From: a virus
Taxonomy: Duplodnaviria; Heunggongvirae; Uroviricota; Caudoviricetes
Virus record (IMG/VR): IMGVR_UViG_2606217174_000009
Strand: one strand, 5' to 3'
DNA length: 35,320 nucleotides
A program made the position numbers and the translations under genes. This document shows, piece after piece, positions 1,633-18,000 of this stretch. The stretch's first letter is position 1. The number at the start of each line of letters is the position of its first letter. Below the pieces are notes generated by a model. The model searched no databases. It was given only the letters and a program-made list of their open reading frames with translations, and was not told where the DNA came from.

Positions 1633-4077
1633 TTAAAAATCAGCTTGACTCGGGATCAGTTTTTGCCAGATTGCTGACACGTATTTTGCTTGGTAACGCG
1701 CATCGTGCAGGGCGTTATGGCGTTCACCTTCGAATGGAATAGTCGTTCTGGCATCGAAATCTATCACCAGTCCCAGAGCAACCATCGTTCGTACATCACG
1801 ATCGTTGTTGTAGCGCCACGGACAGGGGATCCCCTGTCGTTCATATGAACGGCGTAAAATTACGTTGTCGAAGTTGGCTCCATTTCCCCACACCTGAACA
1901 AAAAATTCACCGGAGTTTTCGGCGATAAACTCCCTAAACTGCAACAGCGCGTCATCCAACGGGATTTCATTGGTAAGAATGGCGGATTGTGCTTCGCGTG
2001 ACTGTTTCAGCCACCACTTAATGGTGTCCCGATCAATGACTCCGCCTGCGGTTTCCAGATCGATAGTTTTGCTGAATTCTGGTCCCATCTCTCCGGTTAC
2101 CGGATCAAAAAACTTACCGGCTATAGCGTTGACTGGCGCATCAGGATTTTTTCCCATTGTTTCAAGGTCAATCATCAGATGGTGCCACAACCTGCTGGTG
2201 GATGTGACTTTATGATGACAGTTAACCTTAATTAAGGGATTTGCTGTCTCGCCAGTTTCATTATCGCTATCGTGATGCTGATTGCCGCCAGTGTTCTCCT
2301 TGTGTGGATGTTCAGCGCCTTCCATTTCCTCCGGATCATCTTTCTGAACTTCAACCTGATTCTCTTCATCGAATGTTTCCTGGTATGTTGTGTCGTCCAT
2401 CACCGCGCCACAGTCAGGACAGTTACCGCCGCTGGTCTGACCATAGGCGGTGCAAAATTTTTCCACTTCCTGTTGCGCTACTGGTTCAAGCAGTTTCGTT
2501 TCTGGCTCGTTTTGTCGCGCATTTGGGCTGTTTTGTTCTGCATTTTGGTCGTTCTGTTCCGTTTCTTGCTGGTTCTGGTTCACAGAATCGCGGGTTTCAA
2601 TCCCCTTCACCCATTTCGGATCATTCGGGTCGCTAATCCCTTCAACAAATTCTCCACGAGAAGCAGCCAGTAACTTGTCGGCATCAACAGGATTTTGGGG
2701 CGGAATGTTTTTCCGGGCTTCATGGAGTTCTGCCCGCAGTTTCTGATATTTCGCATCAACAGAATTTACCTGTGACTGAGCATCCAGCGGCTGCGTGTCC
2801 TGATGATGTTCAGTTGCATCCGGTTCCACTGTTTCAGCCGTTGCCTGTTCATCTGCCATTGCGCAAGATGGTTGCGGTTTTTTTTCATCATCCTGTTTTT
2901 CTTCTTCTGTTACACGCTGCGGCATCGGGGCAGAGGAGCGACCGCAGGCAATATCCACGATTTCCGGATCAGGGTTGGCATGATCGGTTTCAGTCAGTAC
3001 TTTGTTCAGATATTCAGTGACGTGTGCGGGGATGACCTCGATCCCAATTGGTGCTTCTTTTACGGACGCAACCACGATGGCGCGGGAATAATCCAGCCCG
3101 CCAGGCATGGTGATGAATTTGTCGCGGAAAACAGAAAAGGGCGATTTATTTTCAGCGATAATTTCCTCGATACGTTTAGCGTGTGCCGGATGAAGGTTAT
3201 AAATGTCCACGTCCATTGAACGAGCCAGTACGCCAGTGGCTACGTCGCGCGCCAGTGACGTCAGATCGTGAACGAAACCTTCGCCGCGATCAGTGAGGTT
3301 CCCGCCGCCAGCATTAGCGCCGGAAGCCGTGCGCGTGATGCGTGAAATACGATTTCCTTTCATCCACTCTTTTGTCAGCAGACCGCGATCGGTGTAGTCA
3401 GCGTTCAGGTATGCTTCGATAAAAGATGTCATCAGTCCCAGGTCTGAATTTACTGGGGCTGGGAAAACTTTGTCAGTGTCTCGCACCAGTTTGTACAAAT
3501 CCCGAATCTCCAGCGGTTCGAGTTGCACTGCTTTATTTGAGATGGCCAGCGCGGTAACGGCGGGAAGTTTTTCATCCTGTGCGTTATGTAATGCGCGCAG
3601 TTCGTCCCGTGAAACGTGCGTGACCGGTTTTTTGCTGCCGTGTTGAGCAAGCCAGCGAATGGACAGTTCCTGGCCAGAAATCGGGAGTAGCATATTCTCC
3701 TCAATCTGAGTCATGTCTTCGCCGTTGACATTGGTATTGTCAGTGCTGGCTGGTTTGTCCTGCGCAGGGGGAGAGGGTGCGATAAATACCATTGTGATGC
3801 CATCTTCCCCGCCTTTTTCGTAACGGTTGCAGAATTCCGTATCAAATACGCCTTCAGGGGGCAGGTCATTCACAACGGGTAAATGGACACGGACGGGTTT
3901 TTTAAAGTCGTCTTCATCATAATCGTTGTCATCCATTGCAGTAATGCAGCGTGAGATAGCAACAGATAATTTTTTTGCTGTAGTCCAGTAAAAACCACCT
4001 TTAATTCCCAGGCGTTTTCTGACTTTGTCATTTTTTGCTTCGCAATATAGTGCAAATTCTTCTTTATCAGTGCTCAT
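1633..4077 (-). CDS. Large early-operon exonuclease with C-terminal DnaQ-like 3'-5' exonuclease (DEDDh) domain
   Basis: 814-aa ORF; C-terminus has exo motifs MIDLETMG (D-x-E) and [10 protein letters not shown] (H-x4-D); acidic, low-complexity central region; sits where lambdoid exo/recE normally lies. Confidence 0.65.
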
Positions 4078-4538: not shown

Positions 4539-5138
4539 TATCGCGTCCTCAACAATGAATTTTGTGATGCGGTGCCTGGTGCCTCCAGGTGACGTTAACC
4601 AGTTAACAATTAACGCCGGATACAGAGAATCCACCCATAACACTGTTTTTGGTTTTAACTGTTCCGCGTGCGCTCAGCCGCATTCACCACATCACAAAAT
4701 TCACTTTAAAAAGGGCGGCAGAGCAGTCACGGAGTAAAACTGATACCGCCAAACGTCACCAGAAAATTGATAACAGAGGGCGTTACAGCGGGGTTGTCAC
4801 TTAAGCGTATGGTCAACCTGACAACCCGGTGTCCTCAACGGGGGAAGGAATACCCCCGCCATACTTACCGCCGCGCCATTTCGCGGATTGCCACAACCGG
4901 AAGCGCACGGTCGACGAAAATTTAACGACAGGCTATCTATGAACCAGCTACCTCGCCGTGCGCTTTCGCGTTATGGTCTGACTTTTCAGGGAAATATCCT
5001 TTCAGTAAACTGTCAATGCCGGATGCTCACCCGTGTCCGGCGCACGCACTCCACCTCACCCGTGGAGAACTCCTTAATTACTAACCTTAGCTTTGTTGAT
5101 TAGCTACTAACGCGGGTATGTAATCATTCTGGCAATGC

Positions 5139-5911: not shown

Positions 5912-6628
5912 TCAGTCTAAGTATTGATGTATTTGTGAAACTTTACCTTTAATGGTGTAACCACCATTCAGTTCGATGGGTTTGTAAAGCGGATTCAGTG
6001 ACAACAGATAGATGTTTGGTCCGTCAATCGCAACTTTTTTTAGTGTTACGTTTGGCGTTCCTTCCAATTGGATTAAGATTATTTTTCCCACCAGTTCTCT
6101 AATGTTACTTGAGCATGGTGTGATCAGCACGGTAGAACCGTCGGGGATGGTTGGGAGGCCGTTAGAGTTTGTCATCGCATCTCCCTCAACATGCAATAAA
6201 AAAGAGTTTTCAGCGGTTTTTGTCATGACATCAACCCAATTCTTAATGCCAGGAATCTCGGTTACTGGACAACTCATATCCCAATAACCAGCCTGTTCCC
6301 ACGTTAAAACGGGCAACCGGGCGATGTTGTCACTAATGTAAGGATACTGATTCAGACGCAGATCATCGGTTTTATCGTGACCGTCCTTTCCATAAAGAAT
6401 CCATTCAGGAGATTTGGAAAGCAATTTTGACAGTAGATGCAAATTCTCACCGTCAGGTTTTGAAGAGCCATTTTCCCATTTTGTTACGGATACACGAGAT
6501 ATGCCGATTGCTTTCGCAACCTGCTGTTGGGTTAATCCAACGTCTTTTCGACGATTCCGAATACGTTCGCTGATAGTGTTTTTCATGTAACCAATGTTAC
6601 TACCAAGTGATGTTGCTATGGTTGACAT
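5912..6628 (-). CDS. CI-like prophage repressor (N-terminal HTH, C-terminal S24 LexA-like peptidase domain)
   Basis: HTH segment GLTQQQVAKAIGISRVSVTKWENG; C-terminal S24-like region; divergent from a cro-like gene; start set at ATG 6628 (MST..., possibly leaderless), alternative ATG at 6586; the ORF-track start at 6685 is TTG. Confidence 0.85.
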   Translation of the reverse strand: MSTIATSLGSNIGYMKNTISERIRNRRKDVGLTQQQVAKAIGISRVSVTKWENGSSKPDGENLHLLSKLLSKSPEWILYGKDGHDKTDDLRLNQYPYISDNIARLPVLTWEQAGYWDMSCPVTEIPGIKNWVDVMTKTAENSFLLHVEGDAMTNSNGLPTIPDGSTVLITPCSSNIRELVGKIILIQLEGTPNVTLKKVAIDGPNIYLLSLNPLYKPIELNGGYTIKGKVSQIHQYLD

Positions 6629-6648
6629 TCCTATGTAACTATTGTTAC
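6587..6648. promoter_or_regulatory. Candidate operator region: two palindromes GTAAC-N4-GTTAC plus a TTGACA -35 hexamer
   Basis: GTAACCAATGTTAC at 6587-6600 and GTAACTATTGTTAC at 6635-6648; TTGACA at 6622-6627 on the plus strand; lies between divergent repressor and cro-like genes. Confidence 0.5.
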
Positions 6649-6677
6649 CCTCCTGCTCGAAATAACAGGAGAGTTTT

Positions 6678-6893
6678 ATGTTCAAAGATGATGTTCTGCG
6701 CTATTTCAAAAAAAAGCGACTAGTAGCTGAGGCTCTTGGAATTTCACATGTGGCTGTTGTGCGGTGGAAAGCAGTTATTCCCAAACTTCGCGCAATGGAA
6801 CTGGATGAAATTACTAACGGTGAATTGAAATACAACCCAGAACTTTACAAGAAGCAGGATAGCACCTCGAACGAAGGAAAGAATGATTCATGA
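6678..6893 (+). CDS. Cro-like HTH regulator
   Basis: 71 aa; HTH segment RLVAEALGISHVAVVRW; AGGAGAG SD; divergent from the repressor. Confidence 0.75.
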   Translation: MFKDDVLRYFKKKRLVAEALGISHVAVVRWKAVIPKLRAMELDEITNGELKYNPELYKKQDSTSNEGKNDS

Positions 6894-7315
6894 AAATCAA
6901 GCATGAACACATCCGCATGGCGATGAATGCCTGGGCGCATCCGGACGGTGAAAAAGTTCCGGCAGCTGAAATAACCAGGGCTTATTTTGAACTGGGTATG
7001 ACGTTCCCGGAACTGTATGACGACAGCCATCCGGAAGCCCTGGCTCGCAATACCCAGAAAATTTTCCGCTGGGTGGAGAAAGACACCCCTGATGCAGTTG
7101 AAAAAATTCAGGCGTTGTTACCAGCGATCGAAAAGGCAATGCCACCTTTGCTGGTGGCCAGAATGCGCAGCCACAGTTCAGCTTATTTTCGGGAGCTGGT
7201 GGAGACGCGGGAGCGACTGGTGAGAGACGCTGATGATTTTGTCGCAGTGGCAATCGCCGGTTTCAATCAGATGAACCGTGGTGGCCCGGCAGGAAATGCT
7301 GTGGCAGTGCATTGA
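6890..7315 (+). CDS. YdaT-like / CII-like early regulator
   Basis: 141-aa ORF overlapping the cro-like stop (ATGA); position and size match a lambdoid cII analogue; family assignment from memory only. Confidence 0.5.
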   Translation: MKIKHEHIRMAMNAWAHPDGEKVPAAEITRAYFELGMTFPELYDDSHPEALARNTQKIFRWVEKDTPDAVEKIQALLPAIEKAMPPLLVARMRSHSSAYFRELVETRERLVRDADDFVAVAIAGFNQMNRGGPAGNAVAVH

Positions 7316-7386
7316 GTGATAATAGCCATATCGAATCGCTTCCGGCAACTCGTGAGTAAAAAGATTCGGTATCAGAAGAGGTGAGT

Positions 7387-8457
7387 ATGGCTAACGCCTG
7401 GCTCAGATTATGGCATGACATGCCAAATGACCCTAAGTGGCGAACAATTGCCAGGGTGTCAGGGCAGCCAATTGCAACAGTGATGGCAGTGTATATCCAC
7501 CTCCTGGTGAGCGCGTCACGAAATGTCACGCGAGGTCACATTGATGTCACGACAGAAGATTTGGCAAGTGCGCTCGACGTGACAGAAGAGGTAATTGATT
7601 CAATTTTGCAGACGATGCAGGGGCGGGGACTTGATGGTGATTTAATCACTGGATGGGAAAAACGCCAGGTGCTGAAAGAGGACAACGGCAATATTTCGCA
7701 AACCGCAAAATCTCCTGCAGAGCGCAAGAGGGCGCAGCGAGAGAGGGAAAGAAAGCGGGAACAAAATGGCGATTGTCACGGCGCGTCACGAAATGTCACG
7801 CACATGTCACGACGAGTCACGACAGATAAAGATACAGATAAAGATACAGATCAAGAAGATCAAAACACTATGGTCCATGGCGTAAAAAACGCCACGAACC
7901 AGGCAGGGGATGTTCAGACCGTCAATCCTGGTCAGCCAGCAGGCACGACACCGGAAGCCGATTCAGCGTATGCGCTGAAAGCCGATTCGGGCGCTGTGCA
8001 GCAGGTGATGACCGCAAGGCCGGAGCAATCACACCAACTGCGGCATCCCGAAGCCGATTCCGCCATTCAGCGGGAAGCCGATCGGGTAGTCCCGGAAAAC
8101 ACCGGGCAGTCTGTGGGACGAGTGGATTATCCGGATGTGTTCGAACAGATCTGGCGGGAGTACCCGTTGCGTGCCGGGGCAAACCCGAAGAAATCCGCTT
8201 TCAGTGCCTGGAAGGCCAGATTACGCGAGGGGGTGCCACCAGAGGCCATGCTGGATGGCGTGAGGCGTTACGCAAGATACCTAGCGGTTACCGGGAAAAC
8301 GGGAACGGAATTTGTTCAGCGAGCGACGACGTTTTTTGGACCGGACCGGAATTTTGAAAACCCCTGGTTGCTCCCGGTAAACGGCACGAACAACCAGCGT
8401 TGTGTGAATCATATTTCTGAACCGGATACCGAAATTCCGCCGGGCTTCAGGGGGTAA
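7387..8457 (+). CDS. Putative replication initiator / replisome organiser carrying internal iterons
   Basis: ATG at 7387 with GAGGTGA SD (ORF-track start 7381 is GTG); lambdoid O-gene position; contains two iteron clusters; highly charged low-complexity middle. Confidence 0.55.
   Translation: MANAWLRLWHDMPNDPKWRTIARVSGQPIATVMAVYIHLLVSASRNVTRGHIDVTTEDLASALDVTEEVIDSILQTMQGRGLDGDLITGWEKRQVLKEDNGNISQTAKSPAERKRAQRERERKREQNGDCHGASRNVTHMSRRVTTDKDTDKDTDQEDQNTMVHGVKNATNQAGDVQTVNPGQPAGTTPEADSAYALKADSGAVQQVMTARPEQSHQLRHPEADSAIQREADRVVPENTGQSVGRVDYPDVFEQIWREYPLRAGANPKKSAFSAWKARLREGVPPEAMLDGVRRYARYLAVTGKTGTEFVQRATTFFGPDRNFENPWLLPVNGTNNQRCVNHISEPDTEIPPGFRG
7511..7551. repeat. Iteron cluster 1: four GTCACG/GTCACA repeats at about 10-bp spacing
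   Basis: Hexamers at 7515, 7525, 7535, 7546; the 21-bp string GCGCGTCACGAAATGTCACGC recurs at 7781-7801. Confidence 0.55.
7771..7853. repeat. Iteron cluster 2: five GTCACG repeats at 10-11-bp spacing, followed by an AT-rich 12-bp tandem repeat
   Basis: GTCACG at 7775, 7785, 7795, 7806, 7816; then CAGATAAAGATA x2 at 7823-7846. Confidence 0.55.
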
Positions 8458-9319: not shown

Positions 9320-12300
9320 ATGAGTGATGATAGCTATAAATTTCAAAAGTTAACGCCGTTCAGCGATGTTGAGCTGGGTGTATATAAAAATGCGATAGAT
9401 TTTGTTTTTGCCAATAACGATCTAAAAAATGTTGCGATATCAGGGCAATATAGCGCAGGAAAAAGTAGTCTTATCGAATCCTATAAGAAAAGTCATTCAA
9501 ATATAAAGTTTGTTCATATCTCACTTGCTCATTTCAGATCGATTGAGGAAGCTGAAACTAATGAACCAAGTAAAGATATAAATGAAACCGCGTTAGAAGG
9601 TAAAGTTCTTAACCAGTTAATTCACCAAATTAATGCTGATGATATTCCCCAGACACATTTTAAAGTAAAGAAAAAAATAAAAACTAACAACATTGTGATA
9701 AACACCATCTTTACGGTGTTATTTATCGCTATGATACTACATATCACGCTATTTAATAAGTGGGAAAAGTTTGTTTCACTTTTATCTGAAGGTAATATAA
9801 AGACACTACTTACATTATCAACTAAATACGATACGCTTTTAATTAGTGGGTTTATATGTACTATCCTATCTTGTATTTTCATTTACAAGTTAATAAAAAC
9901 TCAAAAGAATCGTAATGTTCTTAAGAAAATAAATTTACAGGGTAATGAAATAGAGATTTTTGAAGAAAGTAACGAGTCTTATTTCGATAGATATTTAAAT
10001 GAAGTATTGTACCTTTTCGAGAACGTTGATGCTGATGCCATTGTTTTTGAAGACATGGACCGTTTTAATAGTAATAACATCTTTGAACGTCTTCATGAGG
10101 TTAACAGACTGGTTAATATTCAACGGGACACAGCAGGGCACAAGAAATCGACGTTACGTTTTATTTACTTGCTTCGTGATGATATCTTCATTTCGAAGGA
10201 TAGAACCAAATTCTTTGATTATATCATTCCAGTTATTCCTGTTGTTGATAGTTCTAACTCTTACGATCAGTTTATCACACATTTTGATGGTGGTGGTATT
10301 CTCAAGTTGTTCAATGAAAGATTTCTACAAGGGATGTCTTTATATATTGATGATATGAGAATATTGAAGAATATTTATAACGAATTTCAAATTTATTATA
10401 ACAAATTAAACACGACAGAACTTGACTGTAATAAAATGTTGGCCATTATTGCCTATAAGAATATTTTCCCAAGAGATTTTAGTGAGTTGCAACTTAATCA
10501 AGGTATGGTTTATACCATATTTAGTGAAAAAGACAACCTTATTATTGAAGAAATAAAGAAAATAGAAAAAGATATTAGAGATAGAAAAAAAGAGATTGAG
10601 GCAATCAATGATGAAATACTCAACTCTAGTCAGGAGGTTGATGCTATATACGATAAGGAATTATCTAGATATAATAATCATCCTCACTATAATCAGGCTG
10701 AGAAAGCTGATATAGCAAAGAGAAGGGCGGCTAGAAAAGAAAGTGTTGAAAATAAATTTAATGGTAAAATAGAAGAAATTAATGAGCTTATATCAAGATC
10801 AAGAGAAAGTTTGGTTGATTCTAGAAACAAAAGACTTAAAGAAGTAATAACTAGAGAAAACATTGATGAAATATTTAAACTCACCTATACCAATGAAATT
10901 GGAGAGGAAAGAGACTTTAATGAAATAAAAAGCAGTGAGTATTTTGACTTGCTTAAATACCTTATTCGTGATGGTTATATTGATGAAACCTATACCGACT
11001 ATATGACCTATTTTTATGAAAATAGCCTGAGTCGAATTGATAAGATGTTTTTACGCAGCATTACCGATCAAAAAGGCAAAGAGTTCACTTATCAACTCAA
11101 GAACCCCAAACTGGTCGTTGCCCGCCTTCGAGAAGTGGATTTTGAACAGGAAGAGGCGCTTAATTTTGATTTATTAGCTTATCTGCTTCAAACGCCAGCC
11201 CAGGTAAACTTAATAAAACGTTTATTCAAACAACTAAGAAAAGATAGAAGAGTTGAGTTTATTCGTGGTTACTTTGAAACTGAGAGGGCTCAGCCTGTCT
11301 TCATTAATCGATTAAATACACAGTGGCCTGAGTTTTTTTCTTATGCGCTGACAGAGAGTGAATTTTCTGCTGATTGGGTTAAACTCTACTCTATAGGCAC
11401 GTTTTATTATTCTGCCAATGACGCCATCGAGGCCATTAATATTGATGATTGTCTGACTGATTACATCTCTGATTCGGCAGGTTATTTAGCAATATCAGAA
11501 CCGAAGGTTGACAAATTAATTAGTGGTTTTAAGTTGCTTAACGTCTCTTTTGTCAGTATTAAATTTGAAAACGCAAATAAAGTACTCTTTGATGCGGTTT
11601 ACCAGCATTCACTTTATGATATTAATTTTTCCAACCTGACCTTAATGCTGAGTAAGGTTTACACGCTTAATAGTGAAGATGATATTCGCCATAAGAACTA
11701 TACACTAGTGATGTCACAACCTGATTCTCCCTTGGCTAGTTATGTTAATAACCATATTAGGGACTATCTGGATATGGTTTTATCTAGTTGTGATGGTTCA
11801 ATCGTGGATGATGAATCCATTGTTTTATCCGTTCTTAATAATGAGGGAATATCTGATGAACAAAAAGGCCAGTATATAAACGCTTTGCAAACTTTCGTGA
11901 CATCTCTGAGTGAGGTTGAGAGCGAATCTTTATGGTCATCTTTGTTGGATAAAGATAGAGCAGTGTGCTCTGAGGAAAATATTGTCTCTTATTTTGAACA
12001 TGTTGATGGACTGGATGACTCACTTATCGAATTTATCAATAGAACTGATGTAGACCTGAATTTTCAAAATATTAATATTGATAACGAGCTTAAAGGTAAA
12101 TTATTTAAATCGATTGTTATCTGTAATGATTTATCAAATGATAAATATGAAAAATTAATTTGCTCACTAAATATTATTTGTAAAACATCCTTTAGCGCTA
12201 GTAATATCGCGAGTGATAAGTTCAAAATATTAGTGGATAAAAATATTATTCGTATGAATGTTGCGCCACTTAATTTCATACGAGATAACTATTCAGAGCA

Positions 12301-12691
12301 ACTTTCCTATTATATTCATAAGAATATCAGGGCATACGTTGAATTAATGACGATTGATAACTTTATTTTGGATGAGGCTATATCAATACTTTCTTGGAAA
12401 GTTGATGATGATTTGAAAGTTAAGCTACTCGAGTTTGTTAAAACTCCGTTGGCTATTTATAGTAAGAATTACTCTCAGGTCGTTAATGACTATATTTTAG
12501 AAAATAATTTTAAACCAGATGAACTTCTAATCTTGACGTCATCTTATAAAACTTGGGGAACCTCTACTCAGTCGCTCATCTTGAGTCGAGCAATACAGGA
12601 TATATCAGCATTGATAGCAAGTCCTAATGATGTTTCTGAACCGTTACTAAAAAAACCTGTTTGTCGCAGAGGGACTGAATATGCAGAATAA
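9320..12691 (+). CDS. KAP-family P-loop NTPase (1123 aa) with transmembrane insert
   Basis: Walker A GQYSAGKS (aa 42-49); two hydrophobic helices (about aa 124-146 and 172-192); Walker B-like IVFEDMDR (aa 241-248); long C-terminal region with a charged coiled-coil-like segment; strongly AT-rich. Confidence 0.8.
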   Translation: MSDDSYKFQKLTPFSDVELGVYKNAIDFVFANNDLKNVAISGQYSAGKSSLIESYKKSHSNIKFVHISLAHFRSIEEAETNEPSKDINETALEGKVLNQLIHQINADDIPQTHFKVKKKIKTNNIVINTIFTVLFIAMILHITLFNKWEKFVSLLSEGNIKTLLTLSTKYDTLLISGFICTILSCIFIYKLIKTQKNRNVLKKINLQGNEIEIFEESNESYFDRYLNEVLYLFENVDADAIVFEDMDRFNSNNIFERLHEVNRLVNIQRDTAGHKKSTLRFIYLLRDDIFISKDRTKFFDYIIPVIPVVDSSNSYDQFITHFDGGGILKLFNERFLQGMSLYIDDMRILKNIYNEFQIYYNKLNTTELDCNKMLAIIAYKNIFPRDFSELQLNQGMVYTIFSEKDNLIIEEIKKIEKDIRDRKKEIEAINDEILNSSQEVDAIYDKELSRYNNHPHYNQAEKADIAKRRAARKESVENKFNGKIEEINELISRSRESLVDSRNKRLKEVITRENIDEIFKLTYTNEIGEERDFNEIKSSEYFDLLKYLIRDGYIDETYTDYMTYFYENSLSRIDKMFLRSITDQKGKEFTYQLKNPKLVVARLREVDFEQEEALNFDLLAYLLQTPAQVNLIKRLFKQLRKDRRVEFIRGYFETERAQPVFINRLNTQWPEFFSYALTESEFSADWVKLYSIGTFYYSANDAIEAINIDDCLTDYISDSAGYLAISEPKVDKLISGFKLLNVSFVSIKFENANKVLFDAVYQHSLYDINFSNLTLMLSKVYTLNSEDDIRHKNYTLVMSQPDSPLASYVNNHIRDYLDMVLSSCDGSIVDDESIVLSVLNNEGISDEQKGQYINALQTFVTSLSEVESESLWSSLLDKDRAVCSEENIVSYFEHVDGLDDSLIEFINRTDVDLNFQNINIDNELKGKLFKSIVICNDLSNDKYEKLICSLNIICKTSFSASNIASDKFKILVDKNIIRMNVAPLNFIRDNYSEQLSYYIHKNIRAYVELMTIDNFILDEAISILSWKVDDDLKVKLLEFVKTPLAIYSKNYSQVVNDYILENNFKPDELLILTSSYKTWGTSTQSLILSRAIQDISALIASPNDVSEPLLKKPVCRRGTEYAE

Positions 12692-13003: not shown

Positions 13004-13601
13004 CGCTGAAACTTACGCAGATAATCTGACTTTTTCCCAGTTGACGAGTACACCTAGGTGTTCGTGAAGCCCTCAGTGTGTTGGGACAGATGCGAGCGTC
13101 CGCTCTTCGCTCAAAGCGGCCTAGAAGGTTAGCTTGCGTCGGACTTGGCGTATTTAAAGAAGTGCTGGTGGTGACTGGTTGTTGTGTTCCATTTCTACAG
13201 AACAAAATCACAGAAACTATACCCAATAGTTGTATTGAATCACTGACGAGACAGCCTCATATTTATCAGGACTGGTGTACGTCCAATACAGGAGGTTGTG
13301 GTGCTGGTTCTCAAATGTGCGCTGGCTATTGCTGCTGTAATGGCAATTTATTGCCTTGCTGTTGTTCTTATGGATCGCCTTTCTGACTGATTTCATATTG
13401 GCGAGGTGACGGGAGTTAAGTAGAATGGCTGCGGGTGCTTGAGGCTATCTGTCTCAGGCATGAACACCAACGGCAGATAGAGAAAAGCCCCAGTTAACAT
13501 TACGCGTCCTGCAAGACGCTTAACATTAATCTGAGGCTCAATCTATGAACGGCAAATCTAGGTTAGCCTCTTACGTGCCGAAAGGCAAGGAGAAGCAGGC
13601 T

Positions 13602-13757
13602 ATGAAGCAGCAAAAGGCGATGTTAATCGCCCTGATCGTCATCTGTTTAACCGTCATAGTGACGGCACTGGTAACGAGGAAAGACCTCTGCGAGGTACGA
13701 ATCCGAACCGGCCAGACGGAGGTCGCTGTCTTCACAGTCTACGAACCTGAGGAGTAA
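13602..13757 (+). CDS. hok: Hok/Gef-family type I toxin
   Basis: 51 aa MKQQKAMLIALIVICLTVIVTALVTRKDLCEVRIRTGQTEVAVFTVYEPEE matches the Hok/Gef family; AAGGAG SD; in-frame upstream ATG at 13545 gives a 70-aa mok-like extension. Confidence 0.85.
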   Translation: MKQQKAMLIALIVICLTVIVTALVTRKDLCEVRIRTGQTEVAVFTVYEPEE

Positions 13758-13825
13758 GAGACCAGGCGGGGGAGAAATCTCCAGCCACCTCTGATGTGTC
13801 AGGCATCCTCAACGCACCCGCACTT

Positions 13826-13846
13826 AACCCGCTTCGGCGGGTTTTT
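13826..13846 (+). terminator. Rho-independent terminator after hok
   Basis: CCCGC-TTCG-GCGGG hairpin plus T-run. Confidence 0.6.
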
Positions 13847-13922
13847 GCATTAGTCTGGTTGACAAAAACAGGAAAATGCGAAAATATAAGGTTTACGAAT
13901 TCTAAAAAAAGCGAAACTTGAA

Positions 13923-14573
13923 ATGAATGAAAATCAGTTAGCTCCTTGTTGGGAATTTCAACCTTATCTTGCTGAAAGCAATGTTCGCCAGTTGTTGGCG
14001 GAGATCGCTAACGTACTTGAGCAGTTGTACTATCATAAGCACGTATTAGACAGCAACTGGTCTGAAGGTGTAAGGGCTTATGATTGGGTCAGAAACCATC
14101 TTATTCAAAATGAAGGCGCAATTCCTGGTCTTAAGATGATTTCCAAGGGGTTGGACTATGTAGTTGCTTTAAATAAAGTTCCGCTACAATTTACCAAAGA
14201 TTGCATTAATAACCCCAAAAAGAAACATCGCCTGCGTCGAAATAAAGTAGAGCATGAGCAGCTTTCATTGTTTGGTGATGTTGAGGCTGAGCAAGATATT
14301 ACATGGCGAGTCATAGCGGAGCCATTTTTATCCGAAGAGGGAGATGGTGAATTAGAGTCCACACTGCCTCGTTGGGAGGTGGCTCTTGTTGGGTTTAATA
14401 TCTATGGTGCTCAGATTAGTATGGTTTCTCATCAATCTACAGCATCAATGCCACTTATGCCCCTTGACGGTAACACACTCCCTGGCGAAGCGGAGATTAA
14501 TAAGGTGTCTCTTCGTCGGCGTACGAAGGATAAAATTTTGGATGTGAGCAGTAATGGAACATCAGGTGAATAA
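13923..14573 (+). CDS. Hypothetical protein (216 aa) coupled to the downstream XRE/ImmA gene
   Basis: AT-rich ORF; 3' end overlaps the downstream gene by 20 nt; TTGACA at 13859-13864 with an AT-rich -10-like hexamer about 18 bp downstream; no recognisable domain. Confidence 0.6.
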   Translation: MNENQLAPCWEFQPYLAESNVRQLLAEIANVLEQLYYHKHVLDSNWSEGVRAYDWVRNHLIQNEGAIPGLKMISKGLDYVVALNKVPLQFTKDCINNPKKKHRLRRNKVEHEQLSLFGDVEAEQDITWRVIAEPFLSEEGDGELESTLPRWEVALVGFNIYGAQISMVSHQSTASMPLMPLDGNTLPGEAEINKVSLRRRTKDKILDVSSNGTSGE

Positions 14574-15657
14574 CTTCACTGAGTATCGAGGCGATAAGCT
14601 CAAACTAGCAAGAATGGCTGTTGGGCTTTCATGTGAAGAGTTGGCCGAAAAAATTGGCAAAACAAAACAATTCGTTAGCAAATTGGAGAAGGGATTTAGG
14701 CCATCAGAGCAATGCCTGGAGTTAATAGCCTCAGCTCTTATGATTAAGCCCGATTTTCTATTTACTGAGCGAAAATATGCTCTGGAAAGCGATGTTTGCC
14801 ATTTTCGGAGTAAGAAGTCCAGGACTCAAACGCTGACTAATAGTGTCTTGGCCAGGGCTGAGATTCTTAATATTATAATTTCTGCTGTTGAAGGTGAAAT
14901 CGAATTCCCTGATGTCAACATACCAGAGCACCCAGGAACTGAATTACTTACCCCGAATGATATTGAGCGAGTGGCAGAAGATTGTCGCCGTGCATGGAAT
15001 CTAGGTCTTGGCCCTATATCATCAATGGTGAAATTGGCGGAGAGTTTGGGGGTAATCGTTGCGCATGTTACGGGAGTCGATGATCGTGTTGATGCATTCA
15101 CTGTTCACAATAACAGGCCTGTTATTATCAGGAACAATGTAAAAAAAAGCATATGTAGATTTCGCTCTGATTTAGGTCATGAGTTAGGGCATTTAGTAAT
15201 GCATGAGGGCATAACTACTGGTGATAAACTTACGGAATCACAAGCTGATCACTTTTCTAGCGCCTTATTGGTTCCTAGGCTATCTTTCATTAAAGAATTT
15301 CCACGAATACGAGGTAAGCAATTCGATTGGAGTGCTCTGGTTGAATTTAAGCTTAGATGGAAAATTAGCCTTAAAATGTGTATTTATCGAGCCAGTGCAT
15401 TAGGACTATTGACCCAGGAACAGGCAAGAACTGGCTATATGCATCTTAATTCTAGAGGGTACACGAGAGTTGAACCAGGTGATGAACTTTTGCGCCACGA
15501 AGAACCAAGTATGCTGTCCGAAGCGATTGACATGCTGGATGATGCAACTTGGTTAAGAATTCTTATGAAAACTGGCTTGAGTCAAGATTTAATTCGTGAG
15601 TTGTTCTCCATCAATCGACCTATTACAAATCCAAGAAATATTTTTCAGATTGTTTGA
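14554..15657 (+). CDS. Fused HTH-XRE / ImmA-IrrE family zinc metallopeptidase
   Basis: N-terminal HTH (LSCEELAEKIGKTKQFVSKLEKG); central HEXXH motif (HELGHLVMHE) typical of ImmA/IrrE (COG2856) peptidases. Confidence 0.8.
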   Translation: MEHQVNNFTEYRGDKLKLARMAVGLSCEELAEKIGKTKQFVSKLEKGFRPSEQCLELIASALMIKPDFLFTERKYALESDVCHFRSKKSRTQTLTNSVLARAEILNIIISAVEGEIEFPDVNIPEHPGTELLTPNDIERVAEDCRRAWNLGLGPISSMVKLAESLGVIVAHVTGVDDRVDAFTVHNNRPVIIRNNVKKSICRFRSDLGHELGHLVMHEGITTGDKLTESQADHFSSALLVPRLSFIKEFPRIRGKQFDWSALVEFKLRWKISLKMCIYRASALGLLTQEQARTGYMHLNSRGYTRVEPGDELLRHEEPSMLSEAIDMLDDATWLRILMKTGLSQDLIRELFSINRPITNPRNIFQIV

Positions 15658-16039: not shown

Positions 16040-17089
16040 GTGCGGGTATTACTTCGACCTGTTCTTGTGCCAGAACTCGGGCTGGTGATCGTTAAGCCGG
16101 GCCATGAATCCATGCCGGTATTCCAAAATACCCGGGTACTGGTGGAGCCGGAACCGAAAAGCATGCGTAATCTGCCGTCCGGGGTCGTTCCTGCCGTTCG
16201 CCAGCCGCTGGCGGAGGATAAATCATTACTGCCATTTTTCAGCGACGAACGAGTGATTCGTGCTGCTGGTGGCGCTGGCGCATTGTCTGACTGGTTACTG
16301 CGCCATGTTAAATCCTGCCAGTGGCCACACGGCGATTATCACCACAGTGAAACCGTCATTCACCGTTATGGCGCTGGCGCGATGGTGTTGTGCTGGCACT
16401 GTGACAACCAGCTGCGTGACCAGACATCCGAATCACTCGGGCAACTTGCTCATCAAAACCTGTCAGCATGGATGATTGACGTCATACGCCATGCAATGAA
16501 TGGCACGCAGGAGCGGGAATTGTCGCTGGCTGAATTATCCTGGTGGGCGGTCTGCAATCAGGTGGCGGACGCGCTTCCGGAGGCAGTATTACGTCGTTCT
16601 CTGGGGTTACGTGCGGAAAAAATCCGCTCGGTGTATCGCGAAAGCGACATCATACCGGGAGAGCAGACCGCCACCAGCATACTGAAGCAGCGCACAAAAA
16701 ATATTGCGCCGCCGTCTCACGCCCGCCAGCAACAGAACCCACCACAGGAAAAGACGGTGGTATGCATCACCGTTGATCCGGAGTCTCCGGAATCTTTCAT
16801 GAGGCGACCTAAACGTCGCCGTTGGGTAAATGAGAAATATACGCGCTGGGTGAAGACACAGCCGTGTGCGTGTTGTGGTCAGCCAGCCGACGATCCCCAT
16901 CACCTGATTGGTCACGGTCAGGGAGGGATGGGAACAAAGGCCCACGATATTTTCACGCTACCGTTGTGCCGGGAACATCACAACGAACTTCATGCGGATC
17001 CGCTGGCGTTCGAAGAAAAGCATGGTTCTCAGATTGATTTAATTTTTCGTTTTCTTGATCACGCCTTTGCAACTGGCGTGCTTGGGTAA
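16040..17089 (+). CDS. Lambdoid nin-region protein with C-terminal HNH/zinc-ribbon-like motif (DUF968-like, from memory)
   Basis: GTG start with GGAGG SD; C-terminal CACCGQPADDPHHLIGHG...CREHHNELH motif. Confidence 0.6.
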   Translation: MRVLLRPVLVPELGLVIVKPGHESMPVFQNTRVLVEPEPKSMRNLPSGVVPAVRQPLAEDKSLLPFFSDERVIRAAGGAGALSDWLLRHVKSCQWPHGDYHHSETVIHRYGAGAMVLCWHCDNQLRDQTSESLGQLAHQNLSAWMIDVIRHAMNGTQERELSLAELSWWAVCNQVADALPEAVLRRSLGLRAEKIRSVYRESDIIPGEQTATSILKQRTKNIAPPSHARQQQNPPQEKTVVCITVDPESPESFMRRPKRRRWVNEKYTRWVKTQPCACCGQPADDPHHLIGHGQGGMGTKAHDIFTLPLCREHHNELHADPLAFEEKHGSQIDLIFRFLDHAFATGVLG

Positions 17090-17101: not shown

Positions 17102-17461
17102 ATGCTCATAGATTTGGTTTTACCTTACCCGCCGACGGTGAACACTTACTGGCGACGCCGTGGCAGCACATATTTTATCTCGGAGGAGGGAAAGCGTTAT
17201 CGCCGGGCTGTGGCGCTTATTGTTCGCCAGCAGCGGCTGAAATTAAGCCTGTCCGGAAGGCTGGTGATAAAGGTGATTGCAGAGCCACCGGATAAGCGTC
17301 GTCGCGACCTGGACAACATTCTGAAAGCACCGCTGGATGCGCTGACGCATGCGGGAGTGCTCATTGATGACGAGCAGTTTGATGAAATCAATATTGTACG
17401 TGGTCAGCCAGTATCTGGTGGACGGCTGGGTGTGAAGATTTACAAAATTGAGAGTGAGTGA
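17102..17461 (+). CDS. rusA: RusA Holliday junction resolvase
   Basis: 119 aa; LPYPPTVNTYWRRRG and DKRRRDLDNILKAPLDALTHAGVLIDDEQ match the RusA family; typical nin-region position. Confidence 0.9.
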   Translation: MLIDLVLPYPPTVNTYWRRRGSTYFISEEGKRYRRAVALIVRQQRLKLSLSGRLVIKVIAEPPDKRRRDLDNILKAPLDALTHAGVLIDDEQFDEINIVRGQPVSGGRLGVKIYKIESE

Positions 17462-17469
17462 GCGTAAAT

Positions 17470-18000
17470 ATGATATATCCGGAAATTACAGGCAAAAGCG
17501 GCGAACATTTACGCCTGAACACGCTGGAAGCAGTCTGGATCCAGGGGAAATTACGGATGTGGGGGCGGTGGTCGTATATCGGTGGGGGTAAATCCGGAAA
17601 TATGTTTAACCGGTTACTGGTTTCGAAAAAGCTGACGAAAACAGCAGTTAATGAGGTTTTGCGCAGAATGAAGAAATCCGGGCTGGAAAAACCGGAACTT
17701 GAGGCATTTTTTCGGGATATGACAAGAGGAAAGCAGAAGAGCTGGTTGTCACATTGTACAGACACAGAGGCGTTGATTATTGATCGCGTTATCAGTAAGG
17801 TGCTTGGGGAATATCCCGGGCTAATCAATATTCTCCGGCAAAGGTACGAAGGACGGGGAATGAGTAAGAGAAAAATGGCAGAATGTTTAAATCGTACTCA
17901 CCCGGAATGGTGTTTCAGCACATGTGAGAAACGTATTGCAGGTTGGTTAGCCGTGGCTGAACACATGCTTTATGTACCTATGCACGATTCATTTCGATAA
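17470..18000 (+). CDS. Late-gene antitermination protein Q-like
   Basis: ATG at 17470 (ORF-track start 17458 is GTG inside the rusA stop); WG-W motif (LRMWGRWSY); located between rusA and a tR'-like terminator. Confidence 0.6.
   Translation: MIYPEITGKSGEHLRLNTLEAVWIQGKLRMWGRWSYIGGGKSGNMFNRLLVSKKLTKTAVNEVLRRMKKSGLEKPELEAFFRDMTRGKQKSWLSHCTDTEALIIDRVISKVLGEYPGLINILRQRYEGRGMSKRKMAECLNRTHPEWCFSTCEKRIAGWLAVAEHMLYVPMHDSFR

Follow-up and report, generated by a model that had tools for sequence, protein, structure and literature searches.

Two described type I toxin-antitoxin (TA) systems provide the background for the element considered here, a hok/mok/sok cassette in the window (the whole 35,320-nucleotide stretch of Caudoviricetes DNA that was analysed; IMG/VR record IMGVR_UViG_2606217174_000009). 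These are hokW-sokW of the phage Sp5 and hok/sok (parB) of plasmid R1. For hokW-sokW, it was reported that HokW arrests growth, that sokW expressed from its own promoter prevents this arrest, and that both RNAs are detected by northern blotting; mitomycin C treatment leads to loss of the sokW RNA and to a RecA-dependent appearance of HokW in the inner membrane, and deletion of hokW-sokW halves Sp5 release (PMC8621323). It was also reported that mutation of the sokW promoter, in a locus about 94% identical to the cassette of the window, abolished antitoxin activity and restored toxicity (PMC8621323). In the scheme described for R1, the translational activator element (tac) is held in a metastable hairpin in the nascent RNA, a tac/fbi stem joins the 5′ and 3′ untranslated regions (UTRs) of the full-length mRNA while ucb holds the mok Shine-Dalgarno (SD) sequence, and 3′ trimming leads to tac/ucb and mok SD/dcb pairing, in a form that is translatable and binds Sok (PMC9841398). 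Toxicity of Hok, its neutralisation by Sok, the instability of Sok, and the stability of the hok mRNA have been documented for both hokW-sokW (PMC8621323) and R1 (PMC9841398). hok genes are about four-fold enriched in prophages and occur in 9.3% of Escherichia phages (10.1101/2025.08.07.668861).

We consider, at a probability of roughly 90%, that positions 13398-13848 of the window hold an intact, self-contained hok/mok/sok type I TA cassette of the hokW/hokD lineage, which forms a moron-like insert within a lambdoid prophage, in its early-right (nin-like) region. The sequence elements, two predicted RNA conformations, covariation between tac and fbi, and homology to an experimentally validated locus are established here. 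A cassette of this kind is already known, as a textbook family with a near-identical characterised homologue, public annotation, and published enrichment of hok in prophages. In the closest complete Escherichia coli genomes (up to 99.1% identity), PGAP gives only "hokD: type I toxin-antitoxin system toxin HokD"; the value for annotation lies in describing the complete hok/mok/sok unit, not merely a hokD coding sequence, and in assigning coordinates to its regulatory elements (Table 1).

Organization and conservation of the cassette

When 74 distinct close relatives are aligned, conservation is seen to set in at the hok -10 element and start site (about 13420-13433) and ends just past the terminator (about 13845). 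Pairwise diversity is 0.48-0.57 in the flanks versus 0.014-0.10 within the cassette. What is conserved is hence a self-contained cassette that brings its own promoter and terminator. Dozens of phage or prophage copies are 94-100% identical to it, among them an IMG/VR contig that is identical over 476 nt; this agreement and the score of the Rfam model RF01794 given below greatly exceed what chance would produce. Some part of a 2.2-kb query around the cassette is matched in 4960 of 5426 complete E. coli genomes.

The preliminary description, made from the sequence by eye, had placed a hok-type locus at 13545-13846. It listed a 51-aa Hok/Gef open reading frame (ORF) at 13602-13757, encoding a membrane helix and a conserved C-terminal part and having an AAGGAG SD, a 70-aa mok-like extension from an in-frame upstream ATG, and a terminator at 13826-13846. 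All of these elements are present, and the hok and mok ORFs of the window contain neither a premature stop nor a frameshift. The type of the locus was thus recognized correctly; its extent was drawn too short, as the actual locus runs from about 13398 to 13848, with the promoter at 13398-13426 and the 5′ end of the transcript at about 13433. Hok covers the whole Pfam HOK_GEF profile (PF01848, positions 1-42 of 42) with an E-value of 2.6e-22 and 78.6 bits (cut-off 22). The mok start codon at 13545 is preceded by the SD sequence GAGG (13533-13536, 8 nt upstream), and mok ends at the stop codon of hok. The terminator consists of a stem at 13826-13843 and a subsequent T run. A consensus promoter scan of 13250-14000 yielded a single sigma-70-like site, the hok promoter, whose -10 element and following bases are unchanged in 933W, Sakai, and Rac; the predicted 5′ end of the hok mRNA, 13433, lies 7 nt past this -10 element.

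Table 1. Elements of the hok/mok/sok cassette and their positions in the window
Feature	Position	Strand	Basis or remark
hok promoter, -35 TTGGCG, 17-nt spacer, -10 TAGAAT	13398-13426	+	consensus scan, 9/12 matches
Full-length hok mRNA, about 416 nt, predicted	13433-13848	+	RF01794 match position 1 to intrinsic terminator
tac (translational activator) element, GGGUGCUUGAGG	13433-13444	+	pairs with fbi (full-length fold) and with ucb (truncated fold)
Sok antisense RNA, 71 nt, predicted	13483-13553	-	coordinates carried over from the sokW misc_RNA entries in AF125520 and AP000422
ucb / anti-SD box, AAGCCCCAG	13485-13493	+	pairs with the mok SD region (full-length fold) and with tac (truncated fold)
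Sok target hairpin: mok SD GAGG (13533-13536) paired to dcb (13565-13570), mok start and variable loop inside	13533-13570	+	truncated fold
mok reading frame, 70 codons, in frame with hok	13545-13757	+	aligns with mokW annotated in 933W and VT2-Sakai
sok promoter, candidate: -35 TTGCCT (reverse complement of 13583-13588), 17-nt spacer, -10 TAACCT (reverse complement of 13560-13565)	13560-13588	-	sequence reading
hok Shine-Dalgarno AAGGAG	13587-13592	+	9 nt before ATG 13602; overlaps the sok -35 on the opposite strand
hok toxin gene, 51 aa, MKQQKAMLIALIVICLTVIVTALVTRKDLCEVRIRTGQTEVAVFTVYEPEE	13602-13757	+	Pfam HOK_GEF PF01848
fbi (fold-back inhibition) element, CCUCAACGCACCC	13807-13819	+	pairs with 13433-13444 in the minimum free energy fold
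hok mRNA intrinsic terminator	13826-13848	+	7-bp stem (5 G-C), TTCG loop, T run

Predicted folding of the hok mRNA and of Sok

RNA folding was carried out without constraints, and the minimum free energy (MFE) structures are thermodynamic predictions. The full-length transcript (13433-13848) is predicted to fold at -164 kcal/mol (z -5.85 versus shuffles); in this structure 13433-13444 pairs with 13807-13819, and 13486-13493 holds the GAGG at 13533-13536 in C/G pairs. In a transcript truncated to 13433-13803, 13433-13440 is predicted to pair with 13485-13491, and GAGGCU to pair with AGCCUC in a hairpin at 13533-13570. The stems of this truncated fold coincide with the consensus structure of the Rfam model RF01794, of which the target hairpin is the third hairpin. 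In nascent transcripts (the first 30-50 nt), tac would be sequestered in a metastable hairpin at 13435-13461 (-16.9 kcal/mol). The folds predicted for the cassette thus reproduce the three states described for R1, and it is the agreement with the published scheme that carries the weight.

The pairing of tac with fbi was also followed across lineages. In the window the duplex has a predicted energy of -21.5 kcal/mol, a value attained in 1 of 200 shuffles. For covariation, the close homologues from chromosomes and phages were uninformative, their GGGUGC/GCACCC core being invariant. A wider set covered 16 lineages, including Photorhabdus, Pantoea, Citrobacter, and plasmid loci, with the Rfam model used to fix the 5′ ends; in every case a sequence complementary to the first 12-14 nt was found 45-56 nt past the hok stop codon (-17 to -26 kcal/mol). 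In most lineages the energy of the real tac/fbi pair was matched by few or no shuffled 5′ ends out of 200; in three, it was matched by 28-48 of 200. The core is GGGUGC/GCACCC in the window type, GGGCGC/GCGCCC in Photorhabdus and Pantoea, and GGCGC/GCGCC in R1-type plasmids. A formal count comprised the six core pairs only; MAFFT did not place a one-base bulge in fbi. By this count, core pair 4 is U-A in eight sequences, C-G in six, and unpaired in none, and 96.4% of cells in the core are paired versus 30-61% when the partner is slid. In the outer helix, a G-C pair is replaced by A-U at position 12 in Photorhabdus and at position 11 in Citrobacter, in a register that was set by hand and so favours the structure. 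The tac/fbi pairing therefore appears to covary across lineages, with support that is qualitative and may trace back to few evolutionary events.

With regard to the antisense RNA, the preliminary description had expected a Sok RNA opposite the leader. A positional homologue of the annotated sokW does occur there, at 13483-13553 (-). The predicted Sok (13553 to 13483) overlaps the first 9 nt of mok; in its predicted fold, about 8-13 nt are free at the 5′ end, and there are a long imperfect hairpin and a UUUUCUCU tract, with an energy of -31.9 kcal/mol (z -5.75; none of 200 shuffles was equally stable). The sok promoter could not be located by eye at first; a candidate, TTGCCT-17-TAACCT at 13588-13560 (-), has now been placed by homology and sequence reading. 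The transferred Sok start, 13553, lies 7 nt past its -10 element, and its -35 element and spacer are almost invariant among the 74 relatives. On the hok strand the candidate overlaps dcb, and its -35 element overlaps the hok SD. In R1, the sok promoter is likewise situated over dcb and the hok SD, and the placement of the candidate over dcb agrees with the location of the R1 Sok promoter mutation (delta-pSok) in dcb (PMC9841398).

A covariance-model search, which had been suggested as a check for Sok, did return a match to RF01794 ("sok antitoxin (CssrC)") at 13433-13607 (+), with 107 bits against a gathering score of 59 and with all model positions (1-157 of 157) covered; yet this match lies on the hok sense strand, so that the antisense RNA is not directly evidenced by it. 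The match spans the region from the predicted 5′ end of the hok mRNA to the hok start codon. The same holds in 17 of 17 diverged loci matched (18 of 18 with the window), in each of which RF01794 lies on the sense strand and ends at the hok ATG. RF01794 was therefore rejected as evidence for an antisense RNA; the model represents the hok mRNA leader, and strand calls taken from it mislabel the antitoxin. At one RF01794 match, in a Vibrio plasmid locus, no Hok ORF was found by script. Two further matches have unusual surroundings. In Erwinia sp. CGal63, the hok leader (150-297 of the locus) lies about 95 nt from three CRISPR-DR4 repeats, and in Photorhabdus temperata two tandem hok leaders (456-603 and 1085-1233 of the locus) are about 630 nt apart.

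By analogy with plasmid R1 hok/sok and Sp5 hokW-sokW, the following mechanism is proposed. A weak promoter would give rise to a stable hok mRNA of about 416 nt, which would be translationally silent at full length, with tac (13433-13444) paired to fbi (13807-13819) and the mok SD GAGG held by ucb. Slow 3′ trimming would then remove fbi, allowing tac to pair with ucb and placing the mok SD and start codon in the target hairpin (13533-13570). This hairpin would either be translated, through mok and with coupling to hok, or be captured by Sok, a short and unstable antisense RNA of about 71 nt (13553 to 13483, minus strand) whose free 5′ tail would pair with it. The resulting duplex would block mok/hok translation and would then be degraded. 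Once Sok synthesis stops, through loss of the element, transcription shut-off, or prophage induction, the pool of stable mRNA would yield Hok, which would enter the inner membrane and depolarise or kill the cell. We infer that the hok mRNA and Sok are both transcribed, that the mRNA is processed at its 3′ end, that mok and hok are translationally coupled, that Hok is toxic, and that the cassette serves in prophage addiction, in lysis assistance on induction, or in abortive infection.

Several points weigh against the reading of 13398-13848 as an intact cassette. The hok -35 element lies outside the conserved block and varies between copies, and the strength of the hok promoter is uncertain. 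The candidate sok promoter has only 7 of 12 matches to the sigma-70 consensus, which is why it escaped both the first inspection by eye and the consensus scan of 13250-14000, in which 9 of 12 matches were needed and no minus-strand promoter was reported. The Sok start site is taken over from database annotation, and the sense-strand match to RF01794 gives no independent proof of an antisense gene. The RNA conformations are thermodynamic predictions, and the frequency of the MFE structure in the ensemble is low (0.0016 for the full-length and 0.0006 for the truncated form). Finally, hokW of Sp5 occupies another genomic position and differs in the Sok tail, in four C-terminal residues, and at the 3′ end.

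A hypervariable patch at the Sok recognition region

Variation inside the cassette is confined to one patch, 13538-13562. It takes in the loop and inner stem of the target hairpin, along with mok codons 2-5 and the Sok 5′ tail. Diversity is 0.30-0.40 there, as against 0.024 at the third positions of hok codons, 0.027 for the remainder of mok, and 0.053 for the remainder of the leader. The 74 unique relatives carry 23 hairpin variants with compensatory changes in the inner stem, which are far more numerous than those in the tac/fbi pairing; all are predicted to fold to a hairpin of -11.5 to -15.5 kcal/mol, except one in which an outer pair is broken. For five variants, the 14-nt Sok tails are predicted to bind their own target at -21.5 to -23.5 kcal/mol and the targets of the others at -4.5 to -13.5 kcal/mol. 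The window and 933W exemplify this difference: the Sok 5′ tail is GCCGUUCAUAGAUU in the window versus GUUCAGCAUGGAUU in 933W, mok codons 2-5 read NGKS versus LNTC, and cross-pairing of the 14-nt tails is predicted to be weak (-5.7 and -9.2 kcal/mol, versus about -23 kcal/mol for the cognate pairs).

Fast evolution confined to the antisense recognition region suggests the existence of specificity classes among co-resident prophage copies. Antisense RNA determinants of plasmid incompatibility would present an analogous case. The 12-25 nt around the mok start might accordingly act as a hypervariable specificity cassette, with prophage hok/sok loci under diversifying selection for mutually non-cross-reacting antisense "incompatibility groups", a tentative view to which we would give slightly less than even odds; if it is true, every co-resident prophage would keep its own addiction or trigger circuit. 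The patch is also compatible with a relaxed constraint on the loop combined with strong structural constraint elsewhere. Different Sok tails were found among the co-resident copies in three of the four genomes having two or more full copies; this was rejected as evidence for specificity classes, since two random draws would differ in about 87% of cases (estimated from the 23 variants). A literature search of limited scope found no paper on hypervariability of Sok tails.

Prophage context, rival readings, and comparison with known systems

The location of the cassette within a prophage, as given in the preliminary description, is borne out by the surrounding lambdoid phage genes. In order, these are an integrase (1-1287, -), a RecE-like exonuclease (1633-4077, -), DicF (4713-4764, -), a CI-like repressor (5912-6685, -), a CII-like activator (6890-7315), and a replication initiator (7381-8457), followed by the hok cassette and, past it, a DUF968/HNH gene (16040-17089), RusA (17102-17461), and Q (17458-18000). 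After Q come a methyltransferase, three tRNAs, STnc100, a NanS-like esterase, and a lysozyme. The cassette has hok on the strand of the early-right genes. Upstream of it lies a gene for a YobI-like P-loop NTPase (9320-12691, +; 1123 aa; Pfam 7e-123) that has no PHROG match and whose N-terminal 440 aa match PADLOC Tmn (5.9e-67). Directly past the hok terminator, two overlapping genes (13923-15657, +) form a RosmerTA-like pair, encoding an RmrT-like protein of 216 aa (3.6e-24) and an RmrA-like protein of 367 aa with helix-turn-helix and M78 peptidase domains (7e-107). Three unrelated genes take the place of the Tmn-like gene in the closest E. coli genome, where hok and RmrTA are kept; 933W and Rac carry the same cassette in other contexts. 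The cassette thus shows moron-like behaviour in an accessory or defence hotspot.

Some other features of the window were also recorded. The DicF small RNA scores 76.7 bits. Between the methyltransferase and the NanS-like esterase gene lie the three tRNA genes (19689-19935, +) and STnc100 (20043-20240, +; 135.7 bits). Paralogous SASA-esterase/DUF6645 (NanS-like) genes occur in opposite orientation at 20414-22396 (+) and 29861-31915 (-); together with a Mom-family gene (27616-28548, -) and a Mu Gp48-like gene (33687-34247, -), they point to a second segment of phage origin adjoining the lambdoid one. A hydrophobic ORF of 30 codons (13298-13390, +; MVLVLKCALAIAAVMAIYCLAVVLMDRLSD) lies a short distance upstream of the hok promoter and has a GTG start with AGGAGG ahead of it. 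It gave no Pfam match, and it is kept at the same place in phages Tritos, Evi, mEp460_ev081, and HannyBb with 83-100% identity, unannotated in three of them.

The position between the Tmn-like gene and the RosmerTA-like pair bears on the role of prophage hok/sok loci, which may lie in addiction, lysis timing, or phage exclusion. It is possible, though in our view rather unlikely, that the same cassette and mechanism have been selected for anti-phage abortive infection and not for prophage addiction or lysis assistance. A superinfecting phage would stop host transcription, the unstable Sok would decay, and Hok would kill the cell before progeny are formed. Both neighbours are of defence type, and the exchange of the upstream cargo next to a retained hok and RmrTA is what would be expected in a defence hotspot. 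It was also reported, as cited in two papers, that R1 hok/sok lowers the plating of T4 (PMC8621323, PMC10305079). On the other hand, a large survey states that hok is not enriched near defence systems (10.1101/2025.08.07.668861), and in the only direct study of the closest homologue, hokW-sokW, what was observed was a positive effect on release of the phage itself and not exclusion (PMC8621323).

A second alternative concerns the product. A 70-aa Mok-Hok fusion started at ATG 13545 might be the active protein, replacing or accompanying the 51-aa Hok; its ORF runs into Hok without interruption, the start codon has the GAGG sequence 8 nt upstream, and the frame is retained in most close variants (16 of the 23 hairpin variants). 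We regard this as improbable. Although mok is in frame with hok in the window and in 933W, the two frames differ in Rac, Kluyvera, and other relatives, and hok has a strong SD of its own, AAGGAG. In R1, too, mok is out of frame with hok. Eight unique sequences of another group of relatives have, at the equivalent of 13545-13604, a mok of 19 codons whose TGA overlaps the hok ATG (ATGA); this common variant is a third arrangement besides the in-frame mok and the long mok in another frame. Among close relatives the mok start codon is conserved; codons 2-5 are hypervariable (NGKS, LYTR, SHKC, LNTC, LDTC, TCTR, and others; diversity 0.40), and the frame relation varies. From the variable frame and these hypervariable codons it would follow that translation into the hok initiation region is the conserved feature and the Mok peptide is not, which speaks against a required Mok-Hok fusion.

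That the locus is a decayed or silent remnant, like several chromosomal hok loci of E. coli K-12, in which the Hok ORF survives and TA regulation or expression is lost, is very improbable: truncated copies exist (four K-12-type hokD loci match from about 13588 only), some relatives carry frame-disrupting indels (for example, a relative with a length of 212), and the sok promoter of the window is weak by consensus, but every regulatory element is present and in register, both ORFs are intact, the cassette is identical or 98% identical to many phage copies, and the very low diversity of its functional elements (0.014-0.05, versus about 0.5 in the flanks) points to purifying selection.

The intact hok/mok/sok cassette may be compared with four kinds of known loci. 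The HokD protein of K-12 type (relF, Qin prophage) is identical to the Hok of the window at 50 of 51 positions, and the 3′ UTR, fbi, and terminator are common to both. Homology to the K-12-type hokD loci begins at the hok SD, however, and the sequence upstream, which we take to be the end of relE, is unrelated; these loci have no hok promoter, tac, ucb, mok start, or sok. hokD is said to have been described by Pedersen and Gerdes (1999) as being without upstream regulatory elements. In a locus of the K-12 hokD/relF kind, hok follows relBE and is devoid of its own leader, mok, and sok; in the window the leader is complete. Judged by sequence, the window copy is the intact form of the leaderless K-12 hokD, and the PGAP name "HokD" reflects protein identity only. 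A more distant comparison is provided by hokC (gef)/mokC and other chromosomal Escherichia hok loci, which share about 74% nucleotide identity over leader and toxin and have the same tac/fbi type, but encode another Hok subtype (MKQHKAMIVAL...) and lie outside prophages.

The closest characterised relative is hokW-mokW-sokW of 933W and VT2-Sakai (Sp5), with about 94% nucleotide identity from the hok -10 element to just past fbi. Its database records show the same layout as the window, with a mokW of 70 codons in frame, a hokW of 51 codons, and a 71-nt antisense sokW that overlaps the mok start by 9 nt, and it does not differ from the window in the sequence of tac, ucb, dcb, or fbi. The Hok of the window and HokW are identical at 47 of 51 positions, the four differences being C-terminal. 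Homology to 933W stops just past fbi, and 933W is without the terminator hairpin of the window; its cassette lies near the right end beside L0134-L0136, whereas that of the window lies in the nin-like region. Near-identity over the whole cassette, including the Sok tail, which would define a hokW-sokW subgroup, was not found, and the two are the same kind of cassette in different specificity variants.

Plasmid R1 hok/sok (parB) shares with the window the architecture and the predicted conformational switch, and the RF01794 match of an R1-type locus likewise lies on the sense strand. The two Hok proteins are only about 40% identical, the tac/fbi cores (GGCGC/GCGCC in R1 versus GGGUGC/GCACCC in the window) differ in a compensatory manner, and the R1 system is borne on a plasmid whereas the cassette of the window is carried by a prophage.

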